Positions 13,146-36,760 of a DNA stretch of 64,000 bases are shown here, piece by piece (positions within the stretch are counted from its first letter, which is position 1; each line of letters starts with the position of its first letter). Origin of the DNA: a virus (lineage: Duplodnaviria; Caudoviricetes); the IMG/VR virus record IMGVR_UViG_3300014204_000113, positions 1 through 64,000 of that record, one strand, 5' to 3'. The position numbers and the translations under genes are program-made. The notes below the pieces were generated by a model that worked only from the letters and a program-made list of their open reading frames with translations, had not been told where the DNA came from and searched no databases.

Positions 13146-13526
13146 ATGAGCAAACAAACTTTTGAAGAGGCTTTTTGTCAAATAGACGCTCATTATAAAA
13201 ACCAAATTTTAGCCGAAACTTGGGGTCATTTAGCGCCAAAGAAAAACAAATTATATAAAGGGTCTATTTTATTCGCTATAGGTTGTTATGGTGATGATCC
13301 TCTTAACCCCACAATCTTACATTGTGAATTTGATGGTTTAAATGATTCTCCTTGGTTTTTCGATTCTTTAATGGAATTTTTAGATAAATCAAATCAAGTA
13401 AGTTATGACAAAATGGAAAGGATTCAAAACTTTAAAGTCGGCAATGTTTATCAATTCGATGGAACTTTCAAAAATTATGTTTTTAAAGGGTCATTTCATC
13501 AATTAAAACTCGAAAACAACACGTGA
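13146..13526 (+). CDS. hypothetical protein whose 3' end overlaps the TnpB1 guide
   Basis: promoter and RBS upstream; ends KLENNT with the stop codon supplied by the element end. Confidence 0.7.
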   Translation: MSKQTFEEAFCQIDAHYKNQILAETWGHLAPKKNKLYKGSILFAIGCYGDDPLNPTILHCEFDGLNDSPWFFDSLMEFLDKSNQVSYDKMERIQNFKVGNVYQFDGTFKNYVFKGSFHQLKLENNT

Positions 13527-13590
13527 ATGTTCCCTTATAAATCTAAGGGCTTTCAGAACGTAAGTTCAAAGACTGCATTCCCAGTCTTAA
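13503..13590 (-). ncRNA. TnpB1 omegaRNA core scaffold plus guide
   Basis: three hairpins and AACATTCAC end conserved with the other two copies; guide = 13522 downwards (GTGTTGTTTTCGAGTTT); 5' boundary unknown. Confidence 0.75.
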
Positions 13591-14661
13591 AATATTAAAA
13601 GAGGAATTGAGGTCACGGTCTATATGCAAGCCACAAACAGGACAATCATAAATTCTATCGGCAAGAGTGAGTTTTTGCCTATTCCCACATTTATGACAAT
13701 CTCGGCTTGTATAGGCCGGATTGACTTTAACAAACAACCTACCGGCACTTTCAGCCTTGTAGGAAAGTTTATTAAAGAACCCAGACCAAGCCGCATCCGC
13801 AATACTTTTTGCAAGATTATGATTTTTAACCATTCTAGTAATAGTCAAATCTTCAACGCAAATTATTCCATAATTATCAACAATTTTTCTAGATTCTTGA
13901 TGAATGAAATTTTCTCTTTTAAATCTTATTCTTTCGTGAATCCTAGAAACGACTTTCTTTCTTTTAATTCTTTCTATAGTTCCTTTTTTAGTTTTGTCAA
14001 ACCTTCTTTGAATTCTGACAAGTTCTTTTTCTTCATTTCTAAAAAACTTAGGATTGTTAATAGAAGTATTATCAGAAAGAACAGCAAAAGATTTAATACC
14101 TACGTCGATTCCAACCTTATTCTTGTTAAATGGAAGAACTTTTCTTTCAACTTCACAAATAAAAGTCACATACCATTTTCCAGTATGGGAACGTTTGATT
14201 GTGGCAGTTTTTGGTTTACCTTCCAATTTTCTGTGTTGTTTAATTTTAATATGACCGATTTTATCAACAACCAATTTCTCATTTTTAATTTGGCAACCTT
14301 TGGGAACTTGCGGGAAGGTGATAGAATCATAATTCCCTTTTCCTTTAAATCTTGGATATCCAGGTTTGCCACCAGATTTAACTCTTTTAAAGAAAGATTT
14401 GAAAGCGAAATCAACTCTACTATTGACATTCTGCAAAACAGCAGCATTAATAATTTTAAAATTTTGATGGAATCTTTTAAGACTTGGCAACAATTTTTGT
14501 TGAATTTTAAGATTAAGAGAAACCCCTTGAATTTCCCAAGCATATTTCCTTTGTTCCAAAAGTTTGTTATAAAGATAACGACATTCTTCAAGAGTAAATT
14601 CCAGAAAGGATGTTTGGTGTTTAGTAGGATAAATCCTAAATTTGAAAGTTTTCATAGTCAC
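13543..14661 (-). CDS. tnpB: RNA-guided endonuclease TnpB (IS200/IS605 family), copy 1
   Basis: KTFKFRIYPT HTH, GYPRFK, RuvC GIDVG / VEDL / DRDLN, CHKC..CPVC Zn finger; likely start GTG 14661 or ATG 14655. Confidence 0.95.
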   Translation of the reverse strand: MTMKTFKFRIYPTKHQTSFLEFTLEECRYLYNKLLEQRKYAWEIQGVSLNLKIQQKLLPSLKRFHQNFKIINAAVLQNVNSRVDFAFKSFFKRVKSGGKPGYPRFKGKGNYDSITFPQVPKGCQIKNEKLVVDKIGHIKIKQHRKLEGKPKTATIKRSHTGKWYVTFICEVERKVLPFNKNKVGIDVGIKSFAVLSDNTSINNPKFFRNEEKELVRIQRRFDKTKKGTIERIKRKKVVSRIHERIRFKRENFIHQESRKIVDNYGIICVEDLTITRMVKNHNLAKSIADAAWSGFFNKLSYKAESAGRLFVKVNPAYTSRDCHKCGNRQKLTLADRIYDCPVCGLHIDRDLNSSFNILRLGMQSLNLRSESP

Positions 14662-14667
14662 ATCTAG

Positions 14668-14719
14668 ATTATAACATTTTGAAAAAGGCAGCGCAAGGTA
14701 AGAGTTCAAATTTTTGTAC
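14668..14719 (-). promoter_or_regulatory. tnpB1 promoter with upstream palindromic operator
   Basis: minus strand GTACAAAAATTTGAAC..TTGCGC..TGTTATAAT, 6 nt before GTG (leaderless-like). Confidence 0.7.
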
Positions 14720-14836
14720 CGAGAAAGAAAATAATTGAAAATAATGGAAGAAAATTGAAAATAATTCTTGATTAATACTTGCAAATAACATAAAATCTAA
14801 TTACTTAACTTGTCAAAGACAAGGCGTTAAAGGAGG

Positions 14837-15595
14837 GTGGAAATTGTGAAAAATTATCAAGAAGCGTTAGAAAAACTAGAAAAGCGCAGTTCTCGTAAGT
14901 TAGAGAATCATACCTATCTTATCCACTACCACGAAGCCAAACCGCATTACATAGGCGTCCGCCTGCACAATACCGACGTTGTGAAATATTACCCGGATGG
15001 GCGCATTATCCTTAATTCCGGCGGCTGGAAAACACCCACCACAAAAGACCGCATAAACAAATATGCGCCGGTGAATGTCTGGACCGATAAAGGAATTTGG
15101 TATATCGGCCAAAACTGGAATAAGCCAGCCGAAGCCATTTATCAAGATGATATGGTTATCAATCCCGATGGTACTTTTTCCGGGGTTATGACTATGAAGC
15201 AAGCCAAAGAAGAAACCAAACTGCGCGGCCAAGTAAGGAAATATGCAAAAGACTTTTTGACCGCTTTAAAAGCTGGCAAAATTCCCATGCCGTCAAGCGG
15301 CGATTGCTGGTATTGTTCACAAGTAGTTTCTTCACCTGATGTTTACAAGGGGCAACCTTTAGGCGAAGTTATGAAAGATAAAAATCATATCCTTTCTCAT
15401 ATAAAAGAAAAATATTATGTCCCTTCCCTGGCCATGAATGCCCTTGAAGCCTTTGGCGCAAGTATGGCCGCAAAATCAACCTTATGGTTTTACATGGGGC
15501 ACGAAAACGCTAACGACTGGGGAGACTTCGCCCTTGAGCAAATCGAAAAGGGCATCAAAAAGTATGTTTACCGGGAATTGGGTTTGGCTTATTAA
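14837..15595 (+). CDS. conserved phage hypothetical protein carrying a recoded TnpB1 target-like site
   Basis: GGAGG RBS; RKLENHTY..LHNTDVV..LNSGGWKTPTTKDRIN. Confidence 0.85.
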   Translation: MEIVKNYQEALEKLEKRSSRKLENHTYLIHYHEAKPHYIGVRLHNTDVVKYYPDGRIILNSGGWKTPTTKDRINKYAPVNVWTDKGIWYIGQNWNKPAEAIYQDDMVINPDGTFSGVMTMKQAKEETKLRGQVRKYAKDFLTALKAGKIPMPSSGDCWYCSQVVSSPDVYKGQPLGEVMKDKNHILSHIKEKYYVPSLAMNALEAFGASMAAKSTLWFYMGHENANDWGDFALEQIEKGIKKYVYRELGLAY

Positions 15596-15605
15596 GGGGT
15601 AAAAT

Positions 15606-15797
15606 ATGAATCGTAAACATTTGAAAAAGATACTTAAAGATTTAATGAATGATTTTAATATCCCTCTTTCTGAATTTTTATACGCTCTTTCTGAATTGTG
15701 CGGAGAAAAGGCAGATAAAAGTTTAGGAATTAAAAATCAATTTCTTAAATTAGCCGAAACTGAAATAAAGGCATTGGCAAACAGAACTAAAATATAA
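15606..15797 (+). CDS. hypothetical protein
   Basis: AAGGGG RBS. Confidence 0.6.
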   Translation: MNRKHLKKILKDLMNDFNIPLSEFLYALSELCGEKADKSLGIKNQFLKLAETEIKALANRTKI

Positions 15798-15813
15798 AAG
15801 GAGAATTTATCGA

Positions 15814-16605
15814 ATGAATGACACCGAAAAAGTTTTAGCAAAAATGCTTAAAGAAAATACCGGAATTCATTTTCTGGATTCAGGCGGCGCTTATGGTAGT
15901 AATTGGGAAAATAACCAGAAAAGAAATTTTGACAAAGAACCGGCAACGGTTTTAAGTTTTGACAATGGTGAAATATCTGTTACTCACAACGTCTATCACT
16001 TCTTGAAAGAACATTTAACCTTTGACAAAGATATGGATAAAAGATTTCATAAGTGGGCCAAAAGACCGGCACAAAAAAATGAAAATTGGCTTACCCTTAT
16101 AGAACAATTCCCATTAACCTTGAAAGGCTCTGGTCTTTATGGTGAAGGTTCGCCCATTACCGTCAATACCTATAATGGGAATGATTTACTATCCCAAACT
16201 ATTCAATACGTCTATTTTGAGTATCAAGGTTTGACTTATGTCCTCTTGCAAATTCATGGCGGTTGTGATGTGCGCGGAGGATATACCAAGCCGCGAGTAT
16301 TTCAAACCGATGAATATTTTCTTTCCTCAAATGCAGATGCAACCATTTATTGTCAAGGCGGGGATGATCCGCGGCAAAAGGCTTTGACACCGGACCTCGA
16401 ACCCAAAAGGCATTACTGGCGAACAGATGATGGTTATAATTGGTATTTTGAAGGGTCCACGGAAGGGCCTAATCTTGAAACCTTTCCCATTGTGGAAGAA
16501 AGTGAATTGGAAGAGGGGGAAAGACCGGAAAGATTTATCTTGGTAGACGCTGAGGGAAAAGGCCATTGTCCTTTTTGTGGTGGCCTTTTAGAAGCATTTT
16601 TCTAA
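15814..16605 (+). CDS. conserved phage hypothetical protein
   Basis: ENTGIHFLDSGGAYG, NTYN and LQIHGGCDVRGGYTKP motifs. Confidence 0.85.
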   Translation: MNDTEKVLAKMLKENTGIHFLDSGGAYGSNWENNQKRNFDKEPATVLSFDNGEISVTHNVYHFLKEHLTFDKDMDKRFHKWAKRPAQKNENWLTLIEQFPLTLKGSGLYGEGSPITVNTYNGNDLLSQTIQYVYFEYQGLTYVLLQIHGGCDVRGGYTKPRVFQTDEYFLSSNADATIYCQGGDDPRQKALTPDLEPKRHYWRTDDGYNWYFEGSTEGPNLETFPIVEESELEEGERPERFILVDAEGKGHCPFCGGLLEAFF

Positions 16606-16632
16606 CCCTTAAATAAAAGGAGAATTTACCGA

Positions 16633-16896
16633 ATGAATAAGATTAAAAATGTTTTCCTTTTACAAGTAAGATTTACAGATGGGGAAGGGGGAGAAATTTT
16701 TACCTCTATTCATCAATATAAAAAAGGTGCTGAAAAAGAATTGGCCCGATGGTGCCGTGACCGCTGGGAAGAATTAGACTTAACAAACGATGTCAATAAG
16801 CCCATTTCAAAAGGCGACAAAAGGGCAATTAAACAATATTTTGATTTTATGGACCCTGATGAAATTTATGAAATTTCAAAAATGCCTTTAAACTAA
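16633..16896 (+). CDS. hypothetical protein
   Basis: AAGGAG RBS. Confidence 0.7.
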   Translation: MNKIKNVFLLQVRFTDGEGGEIFTSIHQYKKGAEKELARWCRDRWEELDLTNDVNKPISKGDKRAIKQYFDFMDPDEIYEISKMPLN

Positions 16897-16923
16897 TCTT
16901 TAAATAAAAGGAGGTTTTATCAA

Positions 16924-17349
16924 ATGTCTAAACTTTTGATAGTAATTGACGGCGAAGTCTGCAAAGTAAAAAAAGTTCACAATTATGGGTATCTTCCCAT
17001 GATTGAATTGGAAGACGGACGCGGGTTTTATCTTGCCAAAGATAGAGAAGAGGCGGGAGAAAAAGCCCGCGAATATTGGGAAGAAATGGCAAATGATGAC
17101 CTGCAAGAATTCGCGGCTTTAGTAGGTGAAAAGACCTTAGTTGCATGGGCTTTAGGGCAGTATGCAGGGCCAGGATCGACCACTGTTAAAAGCCTTGACG
17201 AATGGCTTGATTTGTGGCTTAATACCCCAGAGGAACAGTGGGCCAGCTATGACAGTCAGGAAAAAGATTGCAGACTTAACCTCAACCTCGTTGCAGAGTT
17301 GGGATGGGAAGACGACGAAGTTAACGCGGTTTGTTATCGGCATAATTAA
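16924..17349 (+). CDS. acidic hypothetical protein
   Basis: GGAGG RBS. Confidence 0.75.
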   Translation: MSKLLIVIDGEVCKVKKVHNYGYLPMIELEDGRGFYLAKDREEAGEKAREYWEEMANDDLQEFAALVGEKTLVAWALGQYAGPGSTTVKSLDEWLDLWLNTPEEQWASYDSQEKDCRLNLNLVAELGWEDDEVNAVCYRHN

Positions 17350-17384
17350 AAACAATCTTTATTCACAAAAGGAGGTTTGATTAA

Positions 17385-17927
17385 ATGCCAAGAGCGATTA
17401 CCAAATACGTCTATAAATTCGATGAACTTTCCGAATCAGCCAAACAAAAAGCGATTGATGATTATCGCCAAGATGGCATTGATTATGACTGGTATGATGC
17501 AGTTTATGAAGACGCAAGACAAATAGGAGAAATCCTGGGTATCAAGATTGACAATATCTATTTCTCTGGCTTTTCTAACCAAGGAGACGGCGCTTGTTTT
17601 GAGGGGTCTTATGCCTACACAAAAGGGAACACAAAAGAAATAAAAGACCATGCGCCACAAGACGAAGAACTTCACCGAATCGCCAGAGAGTTGCAAAAAC
17701 TGCAAAAGAAAAATTTCTATTCACTTTCCGCAAAAGTCAAACAAAGCGGCCATTACTCGCATGAATATTGTACAGAAATCGAAGTTTACGACAATCTTAA
17801 TTCATACGGTGGATTTACAAAAGTCTTGAAACCGAATGGGATTATCTTTCATCGGACGAACAAATCATTGAAACCATCCAAGCTAATGAATGGGAGTTTG
17901 ATGAAAATGGTAAGATGGTTTAAATAA
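17385..17927 (+). pseudogene. conserved phage acidic protein, apparently frameshifted near 17808
   Basis: FSGFSNQGDGACF N-part; the expected acidic C-terminus RWIYKSLETEWDYLSSDEQIIETIQANEWEFDENG lies in another frame. Confidence 0.6.
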
Positions 17928-17941
17928 AGGAAAATAAAACT

Positions 17942-18127
17942 ATGGCAAAATTGATCGATGGTAAAATACCAGCATTTACCGAATGTCCTTATAAAAGTAA
18001 ATGCAATCCAGAAATATGTAATCACCAAGGAAGTGATCATCAAGTGGCTTTTTCTTGTGCGTTTGCGCGTGCTTATGAATTACTTGAAAAGAGACAAAAG
18101 GAGAAAATTAAAAATGGGGTTTATTAA
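17942..18127 (+). CDS. small Cys-rich protein
   Basis: CPY..C..C..FSCAFAR. Confidence 0.6.
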   Translation: MAKLIDGKIPAFTECPYKSKCNPEICNHQGSDHQVAFSCAFARAYELLEKRQKEKIKNGVY

Positions 18128-18437
18128 AATTAGTGTCAGGGATAAAATAAACAATGGCGGTTACAATCACAAACACCCTTACCCAAGAGTGCCAGTTGGT
18201 AAAACCAGAAGAGAAGCCGTGTCAGACCCTAATTATCAAGAGGCTTTAGGTTTGTACAACAAAGAAGAAAGTCAACTCTTGAAAGAATTAAAAGAAGATT
18301 TAGAAGAGGAATTCAAAACTTGGGATTGGCACCGCAAAGAAGAGGCTTGGAATTTCGCCTATAATGAAGGATATTCTATGGGATTTAGTGAAATTTTAAA
18401 TTGGTATGGCGATTATGTTGACGATTTCTTTAAATAA
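18114..18437 (+). CDS. hypothetical protein
   Basis: AAGGAG RBS before ATG 18114. Confidence 0.7.
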   Translation: MGFIKISVRDKINNGGYNHKHPYPRVPVGKTRREAVSDPNYQEALGLYNKEESQLLKELKEDLEEEFKTWDWHRKEEAWNFAYNEGYSMGFSEILNWYGDYVDDFFK

Positions 18438-18452
18438 AAAGGGGGTTAATTA

Positions 18453-18695
18453 ATGCCAAACAAATACTATATCAAAAAGACAAATAAAGGTATAGAAGCA
18501 AAGCATATTCCTGGAAAGGAATTAGAACAAGATGTATGGTTCGAAACTTTGTTTGCTATTAACAAATATGGTTTTCTTTTACAAGAAGGAGAAACCTTAA
18601 ACGGTCCAGAATTTGCCGCTTTAATTCGCAAGAAAGGAGCAAAACGACACAAAGAACTTTTGGCAGATTCGATACTAATATCTATGCCTAACTAA
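18453..18695 (+). CDS. hypothetical protein
   Basis: RBS present. Confidence 0.65.
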   Translation: MPNKYYIKKTNKGIEAKHIPGKELEQDVWFETLFAINKYGFLLQEGETLNGPEFAALIRKKGAKRHKELLADSILISMPN

Positions 18696-18845
18696 CCCTC
18701 TTTTATTTTGTGTGAAATACGCCTGAGAACGCGTAGAAATGGCCCAAAAACAAGAGATAATTTAAAAGAGGTACTTTAGGTAGGGTTTGGAGAAAATTGT
18801 CAAAATAAGGGCTATTTAATTCAAATTATAAGGGGGTATAAAATT

Positions 18846-19169
18846 ATGAATTTTGAGAACAGTTATCCTTATTCACAAGATGTAAAATTGCTCAAAGAAT
18901 TGAAGCTGGCCGCTTGGTCTGCAAAACACGGCGAAGAAAAGAAAATCGGCATCGTGGTTTGTGATGAATCAACGGTTGAAATTTTCGTGACTTGTTATCC
19001 GGCGCAATTTTACAAATTCATTATCAAAATTGGTTTAAAAAACTATGATACAGATATTATTTCTCGCCAGATTTATGAAATGACAACTGGGTCTGGTGCA
19101 TTGTCTGACTACTGGCCTATGGCTAAAGCCATTGCTGAAAATATGGTGGTTATCAAGGAAGTTTCATAA
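18846..19169 (+). CDS. hypothetical protein
   Basis: RBS present. Confidence 0.7.
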   Translation: MNFENSYPYSQDVKLLKELKLAAWSAKHGEEKKIGIVVCDESTVEIFVTCYPAQFYKFIIKIGLKNYDTDIISRQIYEMTTGSGALSDYWPMAKAIAENMVVIKEVS

Positions 19170-19189
19170 AAGGTTAAATTATCGCATAT

Positions 19190-19273
19190 GTTCAAAAATT
19201 TGTACTTTCTTCTAAAAATAATTTTCAAAAAGTGAAAATAATTCTTGACAAGTTGATTTGAATAATTTAAGAT
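19190..19273 (+). promoter_or_regulatory. operator plus sigma70 promoter cassette
   Basis: GTTCAAAAATTTGTAC then AAAATAATTTTCAAAAAGTGAAAATAATTCTTGACAAG; similar cassette at ~31959, ~36680 and, without the operator, ~58598. Confidence 0.7.
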
Positions 19274-19472
19274 TAACCATACTTTAAACACTTTGAATCA
19301 TTAACCAAAAACTAAGAGGGGGTGATTATCATGCGTTCCAAAATCAAGGGTTAAATAATTGAGATGGACACCGGCAAGAAAAAATATGAAAACGTGGTAA
19401 GGGGCATGGGCAAACGCCCCTAGAGAATCACATAACAAGCCCTAAATAATGCCAAACAGGAGGGACCAGACA

Positions 19473-19517
19473 ATGAGGGTAGGCCGGAAGGTTAGGAGGC
19501 CAGCACCCGAGGACTAA
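19473..19517 (+). other. putative leader peptide MRVGRKVRRPAPED
   Basis: GGAGGG RBS 8 nt upstream; overlaps a sequence complementary to a downstream hairpin. Confidence 0.4.
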
Positions 19518-19601
19518 AGACCAAAACAGCTTGAGGAATAACACAGAGAGACTACGGGGTGCGGCCTACCCGCACCCCAATTACTAAAAGGAGGGTTAAG
19601 A

Positions 19602-19820: not shown

Positions 19821-19836
19821 ATTAAGGGGTAAATAA

Positions 19837-22135: not shown

Positions 22136-22512
22136 TGATAAATAAAAAACAAATAGAAGAAATAATGAGACTCAAAGATGTTCTTAAAGTTGAAGTTGAA
22201 AAAGAACAAACAACTATTTTAACTTCTGATATTTACATGGACAATATTTTGTTAGGTAGATATAAAATAATCTTAAAACCTTATAGTGGAGAAGAAAATA
22301 ATCCCTATATAATACGGCTTGATGCCTTTATAAATGTTATCTTCAGCCATCTTTCCAATGCAGCTATTGTCTATGACAGGTTGCAAGATATCATTCCGTC
22401 ACCTGAACTTGAGGAACAAAAACAAAAGGTGATTGAAGTGCAAAACGAAGCGTTAAATGTTTTCAATCTGATGATTGATGAAAGAGAAGAAAGAAAGGAA
22501 AAAGATAAATGA
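22135..22512 (+). CDS. hypothetical protein
   Basis: start overlaps upstream stop. Confidence 0.65.
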   Translation: MINKKQIEEIMRLKDVLKVEVEKEQTTILTSDIYMDNILLGRYKIILKPYSGEENNPYIIRLDAFINVIFSHLSNAAIVYDRLQDIIPSPELEEQKQKVIEVQNEALNVFNLMIDEREERKEKDK

Positions 22513-22739
22513 TAAACATTGATGGCGAAAAGAATATAGCAATTGAAACTTTGCGCCACTATTGGCTAAAGAGCAGATTGTCAGATGGTCAATTTATCAA
22601 AGAAGTTATGAAACTAACAGGAAGAATTATCTATCAGATGAATGGATTCAGACTAACCAGATTAGGACAAGTAAAACTGGTTGAATATCCAAAAGGCTGG
22701 GCTATCATAAGAAAGGACAAAACCTTATATGCCGAATGA
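22509..22739 (+). CDS. hypothetical protein
   Basis: ATGA overlap with upstream gene. Confidence 0.6.
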   Translation: MINIDGEKNIAIETLRHYWLKSRLSDGQFIKEVMKLTGRIIYQMNGFRLTRLGQVKLVEYPKGWAIIRKDKTLYAE

Positions 22740-22758
22740 AATTTTATATAAAGGTTCA

Positions 22759-22845
22759 TTTTGCTGGCACGGCGAATCGTGAATGTTCTGTCTAAATTCA
22801 GACAGCTTTTTGGATATTATCCAAAGACTCCATCCCGAGTCTCAA
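22759..22845 (-). ncRNA. TnpB2 omegaRNA core scaffold plus guide
   Basis: hairpins and AACATTCAC end at 22779; guide GATTCGCCGTGCCAGCAAAA. Confidence 0.75.
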
Positions 22846-23916
22846 TATGTTAATTGCAGCATTATGATCTCTATCTAACACTAAACCACAATGAGGGCAA
22901 GAATGTATTCTGACAGACAAGTCTTTATCAACAATTTGACTGCAAGAAGAACACTTCTTGCTAGTGTTTCGAGGATTAATGAATATGACTTTTCTACCAG
23001 CATATTCTGCTTTGTAGACGGTCATATTCATAAATTGATTCCAAGCAACATTACCTATAGATTTTCTAATCCCTTTGAAAGATTTATCTTTCATTTGTTC
23101 GATATTCAATTTCTCAAAAACTATGATTTGATTCTCATTCACAATTCTTCTAGACAATTTATGGGCAAAATCGATTCTTTTGTTTACAATCTTAGAATGA
23201 ATCTTAGCAACAATCTTTTTGAGTTTATTTCTTTTAAAAGAGCCTTTTTTCTCTTTACTGAGTTTTCTCTGACATTTAGTAAGTTTGTCTTCACTTTCTT
23301 TAAAGAATCTAGGATTATCAACTTTCTCACCATCAGAAAATGTTGCAAAGTTGATAAGACCGACATCAATTCCAATAGATTTGTCAATAATAGGCAATTT
23401 AATATTTTCAACTTCACAACTAAAACAAGCATACCATTTGCCGGTGGAATCTCTTCCGATAGTAAGTGTCTTAATTTTTCCTTCAGTTGGTCTATGTTGT
23501 TTGATTCTGACAGAGCCAATTTTAGACATCTTAAGTTTGTTGTCAACAAGTTTAAAACCATCTTGAGTAAATGTAAAAGAATTATATCTGTCATAACCTT
23601 GAAATCTTGGATATCCTGGTTTGTCACCAGATTTTATTCTTCTGAAAAAAGATTTAAAAGCTTTGTCAAGCCTGTCTTGTGCATTTCTAAGACAATGGAT
23701 ATGAATATCTTTAAGTTCTGGTTTGGTTTTTCTCCATTCTGGGATAAACTTTTGAGTGTCATACAAACCAAGACTTTTCTTTTCTTCTTCCCAACTCTTT
23801 TTGCAAACTTCCAAAGTCTTATTATATACCCATCTGCAACCATCAAGATAAGATTGCAAAGATTTCTTCTGTTTGGAAGTAGGATAAATCCTGAATTTAA
23901 ATGTTTTCATGCTCAT
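22798..23916 (-). CDS. tnpB: RNA-guided endonuclease TnpB, copy 2
   Basis: GIDVG / FEKL / DRDHNAAINI intact RuvC triad; CSSC..CPHC. Confidence 0.95.
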   Translation of the reverse strand: MSMKTFKFRIYPTSKQKKSLQSYLDGCRWVYNKTLEVCKKSWEEEKKSLGLYDTQKFIPEWRKTKPELKDIHIHCLRNAQDRLDKAFKSFFRRIKSGDKPGYPRFQGYDRYNSFTFTQDGFKLVDNKLKMSKIGSVRIKQHRPTEGKIKTLTIGRDSTGKWYACFSCEVENIKLPIIDKSIGIDVGLINFATFSDGEKVDNPRFFKESEDKLTKCQRKLSKEKKGSFKRNKLKKIVAKIHSKIVNKRIDFAHKLSRRIVNENQIIVFEKLNIEQMKDKSFKGIRKSIGNVAWNQFMNMTVYKAEYAGRKVIFINPRNTSKKCSSCSQIVDKDLSVRIHSCPHCGLVLDRDHNAAINILRLGMESLDNIQKAV

Positions 23917-23922
23917 GTCTAG

Positions 23923-23973
23923 ATTATAACATATGGGAAAAATAATGCAATAGAAAAGTACAAAATTTTGTAC
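23923..23973 (-). promoter_or_regulatory. tnpB2 promoter with perfect palindromic operator
   Basis: GTACAAAATTTTGTAC (23958-23973)..TTGCAT..TGTTATAAT. Confidence 0.7.
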
Positions 23974-23995: not shown

Positions 23996-24226
23996 ATGAT
24001 TTTGTTTAAAGTGGTTTTCTGTTGGCATGGTGAAAGCCATATTTTGTATTCTCATGCTGCCAATGAAACCAAGGCATTTCAAAATTGCTGTGTCCAGTTG
24101 GCAAAGAAATTGGAATATTCGGCAAGCGCGGTTAGAAACTATTTCAGGAATTCGGATAGGTATGAAATTACAAAGGAGAAAAATAATGTTAAACGAATGG
24201 TCTGCCGAAATAATGTGGCCGAATGA
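23996..24226 (+). CDS. hypothetical protein carrying a recoded TnpB2 target-like site
   Basis: AGGAGG RBS; MILFKVVFCWHGESH. Confidence 0.75.
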   Translation: MILFKVVFCWHGESHILYSHAANETKAFQNCCVQLAKKLEYSASAVRNYFRNSDRYEITKEKNNVKRMVCRNNVAE

Positions 24227-29680: not shown

Positions 29681-29737
29681 AATTTTTCTTGACAAACCTT
29701 TCAGCCTATAGGATAATCTTCCAAAAGGAGGAAAAAT

Positions 29738-30319
29738 ATGTCTGACTTCCAAACTGCTCTAAAACAGGTTGAGGCTAAACCGAAGGCCAAGAAGCAAGAA
29801 ATCCCTTTCCTTAAAATCCCCCAGCGAATTAAAGACGCAGTGGACACCTTCCAAGCTGCCAAGAAAAACAAAATCCAGGCAGAAGCCACCATGAAGGAAA
29901 AAGAAGCCGTCATAATTGACTTCGTTAGAGAGAAACAAGACCTTGATGGTTTTGCTGATAAGTACCATAATTCCTATGCCTTGAAAGGAGAGGGGCATGA
30001 AGTCAAAGTTATCTATGCAAAAAAATGGTCTATAAATCCTGAATCAAAAAGTGAACTGAAAAAACTTTTGAAAAGGAATTACAATATTTTGATAAAAGAA
30101 AGTTATTCATTAAGTTTAAGAAAAGAAGTTTTTGAAGATGGGCAATTACAAAAGGATTTGTTATCACTTATTGGTGATAGATTCAAAGACTTCTTCGAAA
30201 GCAAATTGGTTTTGAATGTGACTGAAAATTTCAGCCAAGAAATATATCAAATGGTTGATAAAGATGGATTGAAATTACTGAGAAGTCTTTGTCAACAAAA
30301 TAAACCAAGTTTGAAGTAG
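29738..30319 (+). CDS. hypothetical protein
   Basis: TTGACA promoter and AGGAGG RBS. Confidence 0.8.
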   Translation: MSDFQTALKQVEAKPKAKKQEIPFLKIPQRIKDAVDTFQAAKKNKIQAEATMKEKEAVIIDFVREKQDLDGFADKYHNSYALKGEGHEVKVIYAKKWSINPESKSELKKLLKRNYNILIKESYSLSLRKEVFEDGQLQKDLLSLIGDRFKDFFESKLVLNVTENFSQEIYQMVDKDGLKLLRSLCQQNKPSLK

Positions 30320-30329
30320 GAGGGTAGAA

Positions 30330-30548
30330 ATGAAAGAATTTACTACATTACAAATTTGCTTTATAATAAAATTAATTAATAGTATAATATTTACATTAAT
30401 CTTTCTTTTGATAGTCGCAGGAAAGATATATAATAGATTGTTAATAGCGCCAGATGTAGCTATCTGTCTTTTTATTTCTACAATAGAATTGTTTCTTATA
30501 GCCCATATAAGAGAAAAAAAATTGGCAAAAGAAAATAAGGAGGAATAA
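30330..30548 (+). CDS. membrane protein
   Basis: two TM segments; RBS. Confidence 0.6.
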   Translation: MKEFTTLQICFIIKLINSIIFTLIFLLIVAGKIYNRLLIAPDVAICLFISTIELFLIAHIREKKLAKENKEE

Positions 30549-30551
30549 TTT

Positions 30552-30812
30552 ATGTATCAATTCAAAATTTCTGGCCCGTGGTGGAAAATTAAACATCCAA
30601 AGAAAGATTATCCTTGGCCTTGGGAAGGGAACACAAAAAGAACCATAACCATATTTGATGATGATATTTTAAACAAAACTGCGCCAAACACCTACACAAA
30701 AGTGACTGGGCTATGTTGTTGTAATATCAAAATTCCAGATGAAGATACCGTTGAAATGAACGAAGAAAAGAACTTGATTATGACAAATTTTACTGAAATG
30801 TGTGGAGGATAA
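30552..30812 (+). CDS. hypothetical protein
   Basis: AGGAGG RBS. Confidence 0.7.
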   Translation: MYQFKISGPWWKIKHPKKDYPWPWEGNTKRTITIFDDDILNKTAPNTYTKVTGLCCCNIKIPDEDTVEMNEEKNLIMTNFTEMCGG

Positions 30813-30815
30813 TTC

Positions 30816-31175
30816 ATGTCTTACGATATCTCACTATGTGACCCAATTACCAAGAAGGTTTTACACTTTGAAGAGCCACATGACATGAAAGGTGGGACTT
30901 ATGCACTTGGCGGTACAACAAAAATGTGGCTAAATGTGACATATAACTATGTTCATATATTCAGAAAAGTCATCGATAAAGAAAAAGGTATCAGATTCCT
31001 TTATGGTCTGACCGGAGAAAAATCAATTCCTATTCTTGAAAAGGCTATGAGTCAATTAGCAGATGATATTGATGATGACTATTGGAAGCCGACAGAGGGT
31101 AATGCAAAGGAAGCCTTGAAGAATCTATTAATCTTAGCACAAACAAGACCTGATGGGATTTGGATGGGAGATTGA
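30816..31175 (+). CDS. conserved phage hypothetical protein
   Basis: MSYDISL..GGTYALGGT..LNVTYNY..DYWKPTEGNAK..RPDGIW. Confidence 0.8.
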   Translation: MSYDISLCDPITKKVLHFEEPHDMKGGTYALGGTTKMWLNVTYNYVHIFRKVIDKEKGIRFLYGLTGEKSIPILEKAMSQLADDIDDDYWKPTEGNAKEALKNLLILAQTRPDGIWMGD

Positions 31176-31179
31176 ATCT

Positions 31180-31953
31180 ATGAAAAACAATCCAAAAGCA
31201 AAATTTTGGAAGCTTACACCAAATCAAAAACACACCGTAAACATTTTGCCAAAAGAGGGTCATCAATTATTGCATGATTATTTTATTACCAATCATAAAA
31301 CGGGGAACGAGAATAAGAATTTGGGAGAAGAGATAAGACAAGTTGTTGATTATAAAAATGACCTTTTTGGTTATACTAAAGAAGAAATGGCTCAGATAGA
31401 ACCAATGCCAAGGTTTGGCGATTATGCAAACGAACTTGGTGGAAACTGGGAAATACATGATGACACCATAAGAAGAACAATACCAAGAATTAATTGGGAA
31501 CAAATAATAAATAAAGAAAATTGGGAAGAATGGCATTTTGAAGGATACAAACTTTTCCATACTACAGAATTTAAAAGATGGAGTCTGCATCACGATTTTG
31601 ATATTATTGGACATATGCCTTATGACATACCAATAGAAAAAGCCTTCGCATGGGCAGAAGAACATATTTTCTCTAGAGATATTCATAATGTAAAAACCAT
31701 AAAAGAATCAGGAGGTAATCCAAACATCATGGCCGAAAAAGAACTACCCATCAATGTCACGCTGGAAAGAGCCAAGATTGTCAATGAGTGGGTTCCTAAA
31801 GAAATAAACGATTATAGAAGATTGGCAAATCGCTGTTCTGATTTGTGGAATTGTGACTTAAGTACAAAAGACGCGGAACAGCTTATCGAAGAGGTTTTTA
31901 TTCGCCTCAAAGAAGAGAGGATAAAGCCGAATTTCTTCAAACATCGAAGTTGA
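31180..31953 (+). CDS. hypothetical protein
   Basis: long ORF; GGAG RBS before ATG 31180. Confidence 0.65.
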   Translation: MKNNPKAKFWKLTPNQKHTVNILPKEGHQLLHDYFITNHKTGNENKNLGEEIRQVVDYKNDLFGYTKEEMAQIEPMPRFGDYANELGGNWEIHDDTIRRTIPRINWEQIINKENWEEWHFEGYKLFHTTEFKRWSLHHDFDIIGHMPYDIPIEKAFAWAEEHIFSRDIHNVKTIKESGGNPNIMAEKELPINVTLERAKIVNEWVPKEINDYRRLANRCSDLWNCDLSTKDAEQLIEEVFIRLKEERIKPNFFKHRS

Positions 31954-31958
31954 GTCTG

Positions 31959-32045
31959 GTACAAATTTTTGTACCCTCTTGAAAAAATAATTTCAAGAAA
32001 GCGAAGAAATTTCTTGACAAGCCAACCATAAAAATTTAAGATAAT
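31959..32045 (+). promoter_or_regulatory. operator plus promoter of the ubiquitin-like operon
   Basis: GTACAAATTTTTGTAC..AAAATAATTTCAAGAAAG..TTCTTGACAAG. Confidence 0.7.
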
Positions 32046-32065
32046 TTCATAAGGAGGACAAACGA

Positions 32066-33385
32066 ATGTGGTTCATGCTTGACAATCACCTTGACGCAGA
32101 AAAAATCTTGACCAAGGCTTTAATACCCACTCTGCTTCACACAATCACCACCCCAAGAGAAATCAAAGGGTTGGCTTTCCCGGAAGAAGAAAAAGACAAG
32201 GTGCTCAAACTTCTGAAATTGGAAGAAAAAACTTGGGCGACGGTTAGAACCAACGATGACAATATTCTCCTTATGGAAGCACAAGGAAGGGTCGTCAAAA
32301 TTGGCGGTCATCTTCAAACTTGGGATGAATTTTCTGGAGTTTTAGAAGAATACGCAGAATTGCTAAATGTTAAAATAGTGGTTTCAAATCCACATGTGAA
32401 TCAAATTATAGGAAAAGGAGTAACTTTAGAACCAGAGGCAGAAGAAGGAACTTTGTTTATAAAATTCTATGCCTCCCCTGAAAAAACCAAAGCAAAATCA
32501 TACAAAGAAGTTTTCGGTTTTAAATTAGGAACAAGTCAAAGCGATGGAGTAGAGCCTTCCGGTCAAGGACAACCAATTATTGACCCTTCTTCTGAAACCA
32601 CCATCGCAGAAGTAATTGGTGACAGCCTTTATGTTCTATTCGATTTGCCTCATAATGACGGTTTGAAAAACAGCCAAGAAATTATGCGACAAATCATGGA
32701 ACAATATTCTCTTCTGCAAAAGTCGCCAGAAGAATTGAAAAAATGGCGAGAAGAAGCGAAAGAAAGAGAAGCGACCAAAACAAAAACTGCCTATGTTAAG
32801 GAGTGTTCAAAAAGATTAAAAGCAGTAAAGAATGAACTGATAGAGGATATTGAAGGAAATGAAAACGAACTAAACGCATTAGGGCAAAGAATTACTGAAT
32901 TGGTGAGACAAATTGATGAGAAGAAGAAACAACTCTTCGGTTTTGACGACCTTGGAGATAGGGAAGAAAGATTTTCTCAAGAATATGATAAGTTGTTAGG
33001 ATTGCCTCATGTCAAGAAAGTTTTGGTTGAAGAGGGCAAGGTTAAAGTTTTCACCAATACTATCTTTCTTGAAAGTGATGGCAAGGTCTATGAAATGGGG
33101 GATTATCGCATTGACATTCCTACACAAGACACCAATTTAAAAATCGCCAATCTGAGGATGGAAGAGTTGACTGGGCAAACATATTTCCACCATCCTCATG
33201 TTTCTGGAAATAAAGATGGCGCAACTCCTTGTTTGGGGAACATTTCAGAAGGTGTTATGCGTCTAATTGGTGCATATGAATTTTCAGTAGTGGCACAAAT
33301 TCTCATTGAATATCTACATAGCAATAGATATCAAGACGAATTGACAACTTACTGGAAGCCAATAAAGAAAGCAAAAAGGGCGTAA
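32066..33385 (+). CDS. prokaryotic E2-like (UBC-fold) protein with N-terminal domain and coiled coil
   Basis: HHPHVSGNKDGATPCLGNI motif; first gene of the E2-JAB-E1-Ubl operon. Confidence 0.7.
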   Translation: MWFMLDNHLDAEKILTKALIPTLLHTITTPREIKGLAFPEEEKDKVLKLLKLEEKTWATVRTNDDNILLMEAQGRVVKIGGHLQTWDEFSGVLEEYAELLNVKIVVSNPHVNQIIGKGVTLEPEAEEGTLFIKFYASPEKTKAKSYKEVFGFKLGTSQSDGVEPSGQGQPIIDPSSETTIAEVIGDSLYVLFDLPHNDGLKNSQEIMRQIMEQYSLLQKSPEELKKWREEAKEREATKTKTAYVKECSKRLKAVKNELIEDIEGNENELNALGQRITELVRQIDEKKKQLFGFDDLGDREERFSQEYDKLLGLPHVKKVLVEEGKVKVFTNTIFLESDGKVYEMGDYRIDIPTQDTNLKIANLRMEELTGQTYFHHPHVSGNKDGATPCLGNISEGVMRLIGAYEFSVVAQILIEYLHSNRYQDELTTYWKPIKKAKRA

Positions 33386-33417
33386 ATGAAATTAAAGATA
33401 AATAAAAGGAGGAACAA

Positions 33418-34242
33418 ATGAAAATTGAATCGGTAGTTCCAATCATTGCCATAACCCCAGACGCCAAGGCAAAATTAGATGCCTATATCGGCATCTGCAA
33501 AGAAGAAATTAGTGGTTTGGGTGTTGTAAGGAGATTGCCACAATGGAAATTCCTTATTGAAGACATCATTCTCTTTTCCCAAGAAGTGACGGCAGGAACG
33601 ACAAACCTTGATGAAGAAACCCTTCACCAATTTTTGACCGAAGCTGTGGAACAAAATTTGGACCCATCGGTTTTAAAATTGTGGTGGCATAGCCACGTCA
33701 ACGGGTCTTGCTTTTGGTCTGGAATTGACACTGGGACTATTAACAAGGCGTTATTAGGTGACGATTGGATGTTATCTATTGTAGGCAATAAAAAAGGCGA
33801 ATACAAATGCCGTCTTGACACCTACGATCCAGTCCGCATCGCCTTAGATGAATTATCCTTGCAGTTGCAGCAAACAACTGATGTCGGCCTTTGGAAGCAA
33901 TTGAAGGCCGAAGTTAAAGAAAAGGTGAGAAAAAAGAAATATACCACATATCAAGGTGGTGGTGGAATTTGGGAAAAAGGAAAGGTTTGGGATAAAAAGA
34001 ATTATAAGTGGGCGTGGCCGGATGAAATTGATGAGACCGATGAAAACGACCAACCCATCCTTCCCAAACATTCTTCAAAGAATTCTTGCGGGGAATGCAA
34101 GGATTTTCTTGAAGGAAAAAAAACTTGCAAACAAAACTTTGCCAGTGGAAAATTTATGGCTGCTTGCAGACTATTTGAACCTATCCAAATAGGCGAAAGT
34201 GAAGAAACAAAAGAACAAGACTTGCAAGTGGGGATGGTTTAA
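33418..34242 (+). CDS. JAB/MPN+ (JAMM) metallopeptidase with Cys-rich tail
   Basis: EISGLG..WWHSHVNGSCFWSGID. Confidence 0.88.
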   Translation: MKIESVVPIIAITPDAKAKLDAYIGICKEEISGLGVVRRLPQWKFLIEDIILFSQEVTAGTTNLDEETLHQFLTEAVEQNLDPSVLKLWWHSHVNGSCFWSGIDTGTINKALLGDDWMLSIVGNKKGEYKCRLDTYDPVRIALDELSLQLQQTTDVGLWKQLKAEVKEKVRKKKYTTYQGGGGIWEKGKVWDKKNYKWAWPDEIDETDENDQPILPKHSSKNSCGECKDFLEGKKTCKQNFASGKFMAACRLFEPIQIGESEETKEQDLQVGMV

Positions 34243-34904
34243 TGGTAAATCAAGAACCCGATTTTTGGAGGCAGTTTGACATTCTTCGGCCTACCGACTT
34301 AGAATTCCCTGTTCATATGGGAGGTTGTGGAGGTATCGGATCGCCCACTGCTTTGGCTATGGCGAAAATGGGGTGTAAAGATATGACCTTACATGACCAT
34401 GACACTGTGGAAAACCACAATTTACCCAATCAGATTTACCGATTGACAGACGTGGGAATGTTCAAGGTGGAAAGTTTGGCCAAAACCATTGAAGACTTCA
34501 CTGGTGTAATACCAAAAACTTCCCTCGAAAAGATAACTGCCGATTCAAAATTGGTCGGGTTAGTAGTGTCTGGGGTTGATTCTATGGCAGCTAGGAAAGA
34601 AATTTGGCAAGCCATCAGATATAAAACGACAATCCCTTTGTATGTGGATGCCAGAATGGGGGCGGAAGTTTGTCGCATCTATTCCATCAGGCCGACTAAT
34701 CCCATTGATGTAGCGATGTATGAAGGGACGTTGTATGATGATGCAGAAGCCCAAGAATTGCCTTGCACGGGCAGAAGCATTATCTACAATGTATTTATGA
34801 TCGCGGCATTGATTTGCAGTCAAATCAAGAAATTTGCTCGTGGACAAGAGTTCAATAAAGAAGTTATCTTTGATTTGGTTACATTGATGTGTTTGACTGA
34901 GTGA
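34242..34904 (+). CDS. ThiF/E1-like ubiquitin-like activating enzyme
   Basis: GCGGIGS, DHDTVENHNLPNQ, GVDSMAAR, DARMG; candidate catalytic Cys in ELPCT. Confidence 0.92.
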   Translation: MVNQEPDFWRQFDILRPTDLEFPVHMGGCGGIGSPTALAMAKMGCKDMTLHDHDTVENHNLPNQIYRLTDVGMFKVESLAKTIEDFTGVIPKTSLEKITADSKLVGLVVSGVDSMAARKEIWQAIRYKTTIPLYVDARMGAEVCRIYSIRPTNPIDVAMYEGTLYDDAEAQELPCTGRSIIYNVFMIAALICSQIKKFARGQEFNKEVIFDLVTLMCLTE

Positions 34905-34967
34905 AACTATCAACTTTAAATAAATCTATCATGAGAATAGGAGGAAAATAAAAGGGATAACAAACAG

Positions 34968-35153
34968 ATGTTTATCAAGGTGGTGTGGAAGGGGAAAGTA
35001 ACCGAAGTTATCCTTCCCCAAAATGGGACAACGGGAGATGCGTTGAAAGCGGCCCAAATCCCATCAAGTCAAGTAACTGGAATAACCGTAACCGGAGTTC
35101 GCTGCTGCGCTGATACCCAATTGAGACCTGACGACGCGGTTTACGCAACTTAA
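34968..35153 (+). CDS. ubiquitin-like (beta-grasp) protein lacking C-terminal GG
   Basis: MFIKVV..TTGDALKAA..TQLRPDDAVY; similar to the next ORF. Confidence 0.7.
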   Translation: MFIKVVWKGKVTEVILPQNGTTGDALKAAQIPSSQVTGITVTGVRCCADTQLRPDDAVYAT

Positions 35154-35188
35154 CCATCAACCTTAAACAAAAAAGGAGGAATTAAAGC

Positions 35189-35395
35189 ATGTTCGTTAAA
35201 GTGGCAAAGTTGGGCGCGAAAGTGGAAGAAGTGAATCTGGCTACCGGGGCCACCGTGGGCGAAGCCCTGAATGTGGCGGGCGTCACCGGGGACAACATGG
35301 AGATGAAGTTCAACGGGATGGTGGTTCAGAAGGACACCCAACTCCATGCGGATGGCGTTTTGACCCTCGTAGGCCAGATCAAGGGCGGCGCATAA
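35189..35395 (+). CDS. ubiquitin-like modifier precursor (C-terminal GG-A)
   Basis: beta-grasp pattern ATVGEALNVAG..LHADGVLTLVGQIKGGA; strong RBS. Confidence 0.88.
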   Translation: MFVKVAKLGAKVEEVNLATGATVGEALNVAGVTGDNMEMKFNGMVVQKDTQLHADGVLTLVGQIKGGA

Positions 35396-35407
35396 TCTAA
35401 CCTAAAC

Positions 35408-35447
35408 CGGCAGCCTTGTGATGTTTGCAAGGCTGCCGAACCTTTTT
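35408..35447 (+). terminator. intrinsic terminator of the Ubl operon
   Basis: CGGCAGCCTTG/CAAGGCTGCCG followed by a T run. Confidence 0.75.
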
Positions 35448-35479
35448 AAAATTGGGAGAATCATTTGTATATTTGTATA

Positions 35480-35567
35480 TTTGTATATAAAAATCAGTGG
35501 TGAATGTTCTATCTAAAGTCAGACAGCTTTTAGAACCAAGTTCAAAGACTCCATCCCGAGTCTTAAA
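35480..35567 (-). ncRNA. TnpB3 omegaRNA core scaffold plus guide
   Basis: hairpins and AACATTCAC end at 35500; guide CACTGATTTTTATATACAAA. Confidence 0.7.
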
Positions 35568-36637
35568 ATATTAATCGCGGCATTGTGATCACGATCAATA
35601 ACTAAATTACAATGAGGGCAAGAATGAGTTCTAACAGACAACTCTTTATCAACCAAGTTATAACATCCAGAACACATCTTGCTGGTGTTTCTTGGATTTA
35701 CGAAGATTGTTTGTCTACCAGCATATTCTGCTTTGTATTTAACAAAATTCATAAATTGATTCCAAGCAACATTACTTATGGATTTTCTAATTCCTTTAAA
35801 GGTAGTTTGTTGCATACTTTTAATATCAAGTTTTTCAAAAACTATTATTTGATTTTCATTTATGATTCTTCTGCTGAGTTTATGTGCAAAATCTGTTCTT
35901 TTGTTTGTGATTTTAGAATAAATTTTAGCAACAATTTTCTTGAGTTTATTTCTTTTTCTAGAACATTTTTTCGCATTAGAAAATTTACTTTGATATCTTG
36001 CAAGTTTCTGTTCAGATTCTTTGAAAAATCTAGGATTAGGAATCTTCTCGCCATCAGAGAAAGTAGCAAAAGAAACAAGACCCACATCAATACCAATAGG
36101 TTTCTCAATATTTGGCAAAATATTCGTTTCAACTTCACAACTAAAACATGCAAACCACTTGTTTGTAGAATCTCTTCTGATAGTGAGAGTTTTAATCTTG
36201 CCCTCAATATTCCTATGTTGTTTGATTCTAACAGCGCCTATTTTAGACATCTTCAAAAACTTATCTTTAATCTTAAAGCCGCCTTGAGTAAATGTGAAAC
36301 TATTATACCTATCATAACCTTGAAATCTAGGATAACCGGGTTTATCGCCTTTCTTAACTCGTCTAAAGAAAGATTTAAAAGCTTTATCAAGTCTATTTTG
36401 TGCATCTCTAAGGCAATGAATATGAATATTTTCAAATTCAGGTTTTTCTTTTTTCCATTGAGGCAAAAGATTATAAGTATCATAAAGACTAAAACTTTTC
36501 TTTTCTTCTTCCCAGCTTTTCTTTCTAGTTTCAAGCGTTTTGTTGTAAATCCAGCGACAAGAATCAAGATAGGCTTGCAAAGATTTTTCTTGTTTACTAG
36601 TAGGATAAATCCTGAATTTAAAAGTTTTCATGCTCAC
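35519..36637 (-). CDS. tnpB: RNA-guided endonuclease TnpB, copy 3
   Basis: GIDVG / FEKL / DRDHNAAINI; close paralogue of copy 2; start GTG 36637 or ATG 36631. Confidence 0.95.
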   Translation of the reverse strand: MSMKTFKFRIYPTSKQEKSLQAYLDSCRWIYNKTLETRKKSWEEEKKSFSLYDTYNLLPQWKKEKPEFENIHIHCLRDAQNRLDKAFKSFFRRVKKGDKPGYPRFQGYDRYNSFTFTQGGFKIKDKFLKMSKIGAVRIKQHRNIEGKIKTLTIRRDSTNKWFACFSCEVETNILPNIEKPIGIDVGLVSFATFSDGEKIPNPRFFKESEQKLARYQSKFSNAKKCSRKRNKLKKIVAKIYSKITNKRTDFAHKLSRRIINENQIIVFEKLDIKSMQQTTFKGIRKSISNVAWNQFMNFVKYKAEYAGRQTIFVNPRNTSKMCSGCYNLVDKELSVRTHSCPHCNLVIDRDHNAAINILRLGMESLNLVLKAV

Positions 36638-36643
36638 ATCTAG

Positions 36644-36760
36644 ATTATAACATATGGAAAAAGACAATGCAAGCTAGTAGTTCAAATTTTTGTACTGAGG
36701 ATGAAAATAATTTGGTTTGAGTGAAAATTTTTCTTGACAAGGTGATTTTAATGATTTAAT
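36644..36760. promoter_or_regulatory. divergent promoters sharing one operator (36680-36695)
   Basis: minus-strand TTGCAT..TGTTATAAT for tnpB3; plus-strand TTGACA cassette for the second E2 operon. Confidence 0.7.

Follow-up and report, generated by a model that had tools for sequence, protein, structure and literature searches.

The tnpB cassettes of the window

The first 64 kb of IMG/VR virus record IMGVR_UViG_3300014204_000113 (the window), a 187,988-bp genome with direct terminal repeats (G000), carries three cassettes built around a gene for the nuclease TnpB. Two of the cassettes lie inside the starts of phage genes; in both, the interrupted gene start supplies the guide and a divergent second start restores the gene. 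The window has a base composition of about 33% G+C and its plus strand holds nearly all of the genes. TnpB-like genes are frequent in phage records (310 of 50,697). No DNA match to the window was found in the GenBank phage collection, and scans of IMG/VR, metagenome and genome contigs returned a single relative, a 189,632-bp IMG/VR contig (G001) that is syntenic with the window at an identity of about 75-94%. Every comparative statement below refers to this one genome. The elements that recur in the three cassettes are as follows.

13543-14655, minus strand: tnpB copy 1 (370 amino acids [aa]), examined for domains, catalytic residues and selection
22798-23910, minus strand: tnpB copy 2 (370 aa), with an orthologue in G001 at 98765-99973
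35519-36631, minus strand: tnpB copy 3, examined for domain matches and catalytic residues
13523-13600, minus strand: copy 1 omegaRNA 3' scaffold, three hairpins with terminus AACATTCAC
22779-22856, minus strand: copy 2 omegaRNA 3' scaffold, used in the pairing comparison
35500-35577, minus strand: copy 3 omegaRNA scaffold, within the copy 3 cassette
14668-14719, minus strand: copy 1 tnpB promoter and operator (-10 TATAAT, -35 TTGCGC, 16-bp operator at 14704-14719)
23923-23973, minus strand: copy 2 tnpB promoter and operator (16-bp operator at 23958-23973, a perfect palindrome)
36644-36695, minus strand: copy 3 promoter and operator, within the copy 3 cassette

The encoded proteins are bona fide TnpB. 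OrfB_IS605, Cas12f1-like_TNB and HTH_OrfB_IS605 matches were found in all three, with E values of 1e-11 to 1e-26 and scores over the curated cut-offs. Residue alignment showed that the RuvC D-E-D triad is invariant (D184, E268 and D350 in copy 2 numbering) and that the zinc-finger CxxC...CxxC cysteines are also kept. Copies 2 and 3 share 77% protein identity, and copies 1 and 2 share 47%. The right end AACATTCAC is common to all three (13523-31, 22779-87 and 35500-08). These results confirm the original prediction, made from the sequence of the window, of three tnpB genes with an intact triad and a shared right end.

The omegaRNA scaffold consists of three hairpins that overlap the 3' end of tnpB and terminate at the right end. 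Double changes preserve pairing at 15 of the 16 predicted pairs in a comparison of 11 sequences (all six from the two phages, plus five more distant viral homologues), and the scaffold is therefore under selection. No Rfam family matches it. Copy 2 tnpB and its G001 orthologue have a ratio of nonsynonymous to synonymous divergence (dN/dS) of 0.13 in the sense frame at a dS of 0.81, which corresponds to purifying selection. The intact triad, the omegaRNA covariation and the dN/dS value point to nucleases that are apparently active and maintained.

Searches of the whole 187,988-bp genome and of G001 gave neither a Y1 nor a serine TnpA, a result that leaves a host-encoded copy possible; the predicted absence of tnpA from the window thus extends to both genomes. 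Upstream of the tnpB copies, a search for a left-end hairpin resembling the right-end one, or for any other stable hairpin, returned only the phage operator palindrome. The original prediction had named a cognate tnpA and canonical left ends elsewhere in the genome as the finding that would make the flanks ordinary insertion sites, and these searches found neither. The elements fail three defining traits of a mobilisable IS200/IS605 insertion sequence (IS): tnpA, a left end and clean joints.

Guide positions and the interrupted genes

The copy 1 cassette lies between an open reading frame (ORF), ORF126, and the phage gene G'. The features of this locus include untranslated region (UTR) hairpins and ribosome-binding sites (RBS).

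13146-13526, plus strand: ORF126, preceded by the orthologue of the promoter, UTR hairpin and RBS of G001 gene G (86923-87060)
13506-13522, minus strand: copy 1 guide position, the 17 nt adjoining the right end on its 3' side (tnpB strand), equivalent to codons 18-23 of gene G of relatives
14768-14796, plus strand: cassette-borne outward promoter driving G'
14797-14920, plus strand: divergent 5' tract of G' (UTR hairpin, RBS and codons 1-25), with a guide-like site (KLENHT) at 14897-14913
14846-15595, plus strand: gene G', a conserved, Kyano_Gp96-like phage protein of 249 aa

Gene G of G001 is directly preceded by a promoter, a UTR hairpin and an RBS. The orthologous set in the window stands before ORF126 instead; G' comes after the cassette and has a different promoter, an RBS of its own and a UTR hairpin that differs by compensatory changes. 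In place of codons 2-25 of the G001 gene, the window carries ORF126 together with the guide, the cassette and a divergent start made of the UTR and 25 codons; only a guide-length stretch of G is left beside the right end. Within the cassette, 14623-14771 is homologous to the matching block of the G001 cassettes. The three UTR hairpins, before G (G001, ~87000), ORF126 (13113-13127) and G' (14807-14822), share one architecture of AACT, hairpin and TTAAAGGAGG, and the compensatory stem changes suggest a conserved regulatory or processing function.

The C-terminal six codons of ORF126 (KLENNT) adjoin the right end in the guide position, and the TGA stop lies inside the right end. The motif around KLENNTYL is conserved at the N terminus of the G family, where G001 reads KLENNT and the resident allele KLENHT. 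The copy 1 flank thus encodes nearly the same peptide as a site in the next gene, as predicted. The guide matches the resident allele at 10 of 17 nt and the G001 allele at 14 of 17 nt, with an identical peptide in the latter; peptide identity alone predicts about 14/17 nt between the guide and the G001 allele. A scan of all of G001 with the guide returned the orthologous G site as the single match with three or fewer mismatches, and this site lies inside the 75-nt segment that is replaced in the window. A tnpB-less relative had been predicted to carry a near-perfect guide match. At copy 1 the relative does match better than the resident, and the match falls short of near-perfect by the three mismatches that remain. 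The N-to-H change in KLENHT was considered as an escape mutation and rejected, as NHT variants are common across the G family.

G' and the G001 allele differ at 22 positions in the first 75 nt (29%), with 18 of 25 codons changed, mostly synonymously, and their divergence falls to 3-5% over the next 78 codons (from codon 27). The switch lies no more than two codons from the end of the guide-matching site at codons 18-23. A junction at the guide-matching site is expected in only ~2% of random homologous patches. Its position fits break-initiated exchange, erosion of a foreign tract to the immunity boundary, or precise composite insertion. Synonymous divergence had been predicted to peak at the target, and it does not: the whole UTR and codons 1-25 are divergent. 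The changed codons spread over the whole 5' tract, so target-focused synonymous recoding of the resident allele was rejected. The recoded immune self allele of the original prediction gives way to a divergent segment, UTR and 25 codons, that is inherited with the cassette. Because the entire tract is divergent, it is better read as an allele segment that probably came from mosaic recombination than as target-focused escape.

ORF126 represents a widespread family of ~110-130 aa (360 homologues) with conserved TWGHLAPKKNK, SPWFYDAL and GTFRNYxFxG motifs and no Pfam or PHROG match. It is not present in G001, and its place beside G is not conserved in other phages. The possibility that ORF126 is a junk chimera of G was rejected; the family is real and the N terminus of ORF126 is typical of it.

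The copy 2 cassette interrupts a second gene, X.

22729-22782, plus strand: remnant of gene X, a TTG start and 17 codons in frame (MPNEILYKGSFCWHGES), with the stop inside the right end
22759-22778, minus strand: copy 2 guide position, 20 nt
23996-24226, plus strand: X', the resident gene (76 aa), which has an RBS of its own and a guide-like site at 24017-24036

The remnant overlaps the end of the upstream gene at 22509-22739. The remnant opens as close homologues of X do and thus represents an entire gene start, in frame. The start of X' reads MILFKVVFCWHGES. The copy 2 flank encodes FCWHGES, the same peptide as 24017-24036, with 14 of 20 nt in common and all six differences synonymous, in agreement with the original prediction. 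Over the last nine codons of the remnant and X', seven of the eight codons capable of variation differ, including two TCN/AGY serine switches. The restriction to synonymous differences argues that both copies diverged under protein constraint in different allele lineages, from which the remnant and the resident start would then derive. G001 X matches the guide at 14/20 positions, no better than X', and no tnpB-less relative is available for copy 2. A DNA scan with the gene X motif gave one match only, which was judged to be chance. G001 X (99940-100020) seems to lack the RBS and ATG of the window gene and has an in-frame ATG that comes from the reverse complement of the tnpB -35 box. A deletion in G001 (98740-98780; locus L010) has left the upstream ORF reading into the cassette.

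Peptide matches between right-end flanks and neighbouring genes might arise by chance. Among 3000 random flank/region pairs from the same genome, a peptide match of at least 5/6 occurred in 1.7%, 6/6 in 0.03% and 7/7 in none. The 5/6 frequency and the fit of the KLENNT tail to the ORF126 family pattern favor coincidence, as does a perfect 17/17 match of the copy 1 guide in IMG/VR locus L076, a GC-rich unrelated phage; this match was itself judged a codon coincidence, and it shows that such coincidences occur. The partly family-typical tail of ORF126 makes the copy 1 match weaker alone than the copy 2 match. The copy 2 match, by contrast, spans 17 codons in frame with the N terminus of the X family, and 7/7 was seen in 0 of 3000 trials. 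The sole G001 match of the copy 1 guide with three or fewer mismatches ends at the divergence junction, inside the replaced 75-nt segment. These data make coincidence highly improbable as a general explanation and very unlikely for copy 2.

Cassette borders, promoters and proposed function

The cassettes are polymorphic between the two phages: copies 1 and 3 are not in G001, and two G001 copies are not in the window genome. The empty site in G001 delimits the copy 3 cassette.

35455-36770, minus strand: copy 3 cassette, ~1316 bp between short AAATTG repeats
35480-35499, minus strand: copy 3 guide, in the 45 nt beyond the right end
36734-36762: copy 3 outward promoter, part of the cassette

All four polymorphic cassettes replace or add DNA past both ends, and none is a clean IS insertion. 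The copy 3 block that is missing from G001 includes 45 nt past the right end, with the guide, and ~75 nt past the operator. The G001 cassette at 90.4-91.7 kb takes the place of the window ORF at 18846-19169 between conserved borders. A copy-1-like tnpB on the plus strand of G001 (70180-71347, locus L009), at 41% G+C, displaces ~400 bp; the lost stretch includes ~63 codons at the start of a 114-aa gene, of which G000 has an intact copy (183722-184281, locus L083). In the intact G000 allele, TTTAT stands immediately 5' of a 17/20 match to the guide of this G001 copy. With no clean IS insertion among the four differences, movement of the cassettes by recombination rather than by TnpA would be the simplest reading. 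Two further features were noted at copy 3. The 45 nt at the right end contain three tandem repeats of an 8-nt unit (35463-35490, plus strand) that overlap the guide position, and a locally G+C-rich ORF just upstream of the cassette (35189-35395, plus strand) encodes a 68-aa ThiS/ubiquitin-like protein ending in GG-A.

An alternative is that the cassettes are relics. IS200/IS605 elements would have been mobilised once into G and X by a host TnpA, recombinants with a divergent 5' patch would have been selected, the guide fragments would be leftovers, and TnpB would have been kept for element maintenance or by hitch-hiking. A guide is a mere flank in any IS605 insertion, and the 82% identity between the guide and G001 is close to the genome-wide identity. 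The X remnant is complete as far as the insertion point, as expected from this model, and G001 copy 2 still has tnpB without its guide. Ordinary flanks at copy 3 and at the G001 copies are likewise consistent with relics, as is the plus-strand copy of G001 that merely truncates a gene. Several observations oppose the model. No TnpA, left-end hairpin or clean joint is found at any of the four polymorphic sites, and in genomes without TnpA the strong purifying selection seen on tnpB and on the omegaRNA requires a function. A random homologous patch is unlikely to stop within two codons of the guide-matching site, and a guide-length stretch of G is all that remains at the copy 1 right end. We consider the relic model unlikely, although it is the foremost of the alternatives.

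The promoters connect the cassettes to the regulation of the phage. Upstream of each tnpB the order is GTACAAAAATTTGAAC, 7 nt, TTGCRY, 17 nt, TATAAT, 12 nt and the ATG, with Shine-Dalgarno absent. The tnpB mRNAs are probably leaderless because 12 nt separate the end of the -10 box from the ATG and no Shine-Dalgarno is present (14656-14673, 23911-23928 and 36632-36649, minus strand). The operator also occurs without tnpB.

45433-45485, plus strand: operator and -35/-10 boxes arranged like those of tnpB, upstream of a GIY-YIG nuclease-like ORF at 45662-47053
19190-19205, no strand assigned: operator without tnpB, upstream of a plus-strand promoter; G001 has a tnpB cassette at the same locus, in the place of the window ORF 18846-19169

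The sites at 45433 and 78463 have the same orientation as at tnpB, and at genome position 78463 the identical operator/-35/-10 layout drives a phage operon. The sites at 19190 and 31959 face plus-strand promoters; there, and likewise at copies 1 and 3 on their far side, the palindrome is upstream of promoters of the TTGACA type. These four sites bear out the claim that the operator at the tnpB promoters is reused at non-TnpB phage promoters. A cassette usually carries an outward promoter for the downstream gene. The ORF at 45662-47053 has a LEM-3-like GIY-YIG nuclease domain and a C-terminal helix-turn-helix, and is a second kind of selfish nuclease under tnpB-type control.

In 5 of the 6 copies, the frame exactly antisense to tnpB runs without a stop for 344-358 codons (in the window at 13591-14667, 22885-23922 and 35606-36643, plus strand). 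TTA, CTA and TCA codons are nearly absent from tnpB, though 78-90% of the K, E and Q codons end in A; AT-rich tnpB homologues elsewhere carry 13-31 TTA/CTA/TCA codons. A conserved antisense protein gene is not supported: a Pfam search with the antisense protein gave no match, its dN/dS is ~1.1, and only the stop-free frame is maintained. The open frame suggests an adaptation to read-through from phage operons. A 347-aa reverse-strand frame has been reported for the tnpB of cyanophage A-1(L), in work on dual-coding tnpB of this phage and Anabaena (bioRxiv 10.64898/2026.02.14.705889).

The regulatory features raise the possibility that the module is domesticated for another job. The cassettes might provide promoters and operators for downstream genes, or TnpB-omegaRNA might act on host DNA, on other mobile elements or in the initiation of replication or recombination, with the duplicates being incidental. 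The outward promoter and shared operator of the cassettes, the lack of a nearby match for the copy 3 guide, the suggested adaptation of the antisense frame to read-through, and the exchange of cassettes with other genes between conserved regulatory borders are all compatible with such a role. A promoter role needs neither an intact nuclease nor a conserved omegaRNA, no convincing guide match was found elsewhere in either phage genome, and two guides that are fragments of the adjacent gene are left unexplained. This alternative is decidedly improbable.

The explanation we favor is that TnpA-less TnpB-omegaRNA cassettes would be recombination-borne modules of the variable early region of the phage. 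Each cassette is inverted relative to the phage genes and comprises the guide, the omegaRNA scaffold, tnpB, a phage-type promoter, the operator and usually an outward promoter. At copies 1 and 2, the interrupted gene start survives solely as the stretch abutting the right end, where the guide is read, and a divergent second start with its own RBS or UTR across the cassette keeps the gene whole. The guide is predicted to be complementary to the uninterrupted allele of cassette-free relatives; against the resident allele it has mismatches at 7/17 (copy 1) and 6/20 (copy 2) positions, several of them in the seed. Given a target-adjacent motif (TAM), TnpB would cut cassette-free relatives in a mixed infection. 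Repair templated by a cassette-bearing genome would carry over both the cassette and the divergent start linked to it, a form of homing with co-conversion; alternatively, the cut would destroy the competitor.

The layout that the original prediction ascribed to copies 1 and 2 holds for both; copy 3 has no duplicate, and its guide matches nothing nearby. Several findings weigh against homing or exclusion. A flank/neighbour duplicate was sought at copy 3 and at all three G001 tnpB copies and none was detected; these copies have ordinary flanks, and 2 of the 6 copies have the layout. A search of 32 other tnpB loci on viral and cellular contigs found no comparable flank/upstream duplicate. The sequence 5' of the putative targets is GGTAG or GATAG for copy 1, ATATGG for copy 2 and TTTAT for the copy-1-like tnpB of G001. 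The candidate TAMs thus differ between copies, and the consistent 5' TAM that had been predicted was not borne out; inference of a TAM from left-end flanks, empty sites and relatives gave inconsistent results and was dropped. The copy 1 guide and the G001 allele of G disagree at guide positions 3, 9 and 12, and KLENNT is in part compatible with the tail that is native to the ORF126 family. A 52-bp deletion has stripped the G001 orthologue of copy 2 of its remnant and guide, together with the final right-end base and the end of the gene upstream, and tnpB was kept. Only one related genome was compared.

We place the probability that the cassettes act as a homing or exclusion mechanism against cassette-free relatives at roughly 45%, a judgment drawn from sequence comparison. 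The parts of the original interpretation that find support are the apparently active and maintained nucleases, the TnpA-less and polymorphic cassettes, the phage promoters, the better match of the relative at copy 1 and the copy 1 junction; the recoding, the consistent TAM and a better-matching relative for copy 2 are not supported. A fuller form of this explanation is offered tentatively, as a possibility somewhat short of even odds. In it, a lytic-type phage would carry a TnpA-free, RNA-guided system of free-standing homing or marker exclusion, in which each cassette has at its right end a guide-length copy of a site in the neighbouring gene of rival phages, a guide-resistant start is co-copied so that the gene still works, and the stop-free antisense frame is an adaptation that lets read-through translation pass the inverted cassette.

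Comparison with known systems

TnpB preserves its own transposon by cutting the vacated donor site. An IStron was rejected as an explanation of the cassettes; there is no Rfam group I intron match, and tnpB is on the strand opposite the interrupted genes. Homing of IS200/IS605 transposons by TnpB-omegaRNA has been described (Meers et al. 2023, PMC10055086) and reviewed (PMC13565253). The phage cassettes share with it the protein family, an omegaRNA that overlaps the 3' end of tnpB and a guide from the DNA outside the right end; in both, cleavage of the uninterrupted site is expected, with homologous repair then copying the nuclease in. The phage cassettes differ in having no TnpA, recognisable left end or clean joints, in residing in a virulent-type phage genome under phage promoters, and in the divergent second 5' end that keeps the interrupted gene functional. 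Their presumed target is a co-infecting relative, not an excised donor site. For 'transposon non-restorative homing', the 2026 review gives entry into co-infecting phages as a theoretical example, and it discusses both plasmids and phages as settings for TnpB-driven, TnpA-independent spread (PMC13565253). Among plasmids, spread without TnpA from one co-resident genome to another has been demonstrated, while for phages it is a proposal only, and our literature search found no paper that shows non-restorative TnpB homing in phages. If true, the proposed mechanism would be a natural example of RNA-guided intronless homing, would tie OMEGA nucleases (for obligate mobile element-guided activity) to phage-phage competition and phage mosaicism, and would mark one domestication route of a transposon nuclease before any CRISPR-like array.

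TldR proteins, which Wiegand et al. are said to have characterized in 2024, are reportedly nuclease-dead, TnpB-like repressors paired with a resistant gene copy. Like the phage cassettes, they involve a relative of TnpB and a guide that addresses a gene whose variant copy is carried by the mobile element. TldR has lost the RuvC catalytic residues and is a repressor, whereas D-E-D is intact here, as the original prediction had held in separating the two. The tnpB of cyanophage A-1(L) resembles the cassettes in a reverse frame of ~345 codons that is open across a whole phage-borne tnpB; it belongs to a different TnpB lineage, and the antisense protein here is not conserved.

The free-standing homing endonucleases of T4-type phages, SegF, SegG and MobE, carry out intronless homing and localized marker exclusion (PMC13565253). 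Similarities include a nuclease gene between conserved phage genes that is polymorphic for presence or absence, a presumed target in the neighbouring gene with a resident allele that differs by substitutions, and co-inheritance of a linked flanking segment; at copy 1 only, the recombination boundary is at the guide site. A GIY-YIG nuclease-like gene under the same promoter and operator is likewise present in the window. The T4-type enzymes belong to another protein family, and recognition in the phage cassettes would be by an RNA guide. RNA-guided recognition would require a copy of the target to sit beside the nuclease gene, unlike in the T4-type systems. Nuclease genes also occur at the boundaries of genetic exchange in ICP1-type phages, in the form of protein-guided homing endonucleases (PMC10448857). 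In both cases a nuclease cassette stands at a sharp switch from highly divergent to near-identical sequence between two related phages; in the phage analyzed here, the junction coincides with a site that matches the RNA guide.

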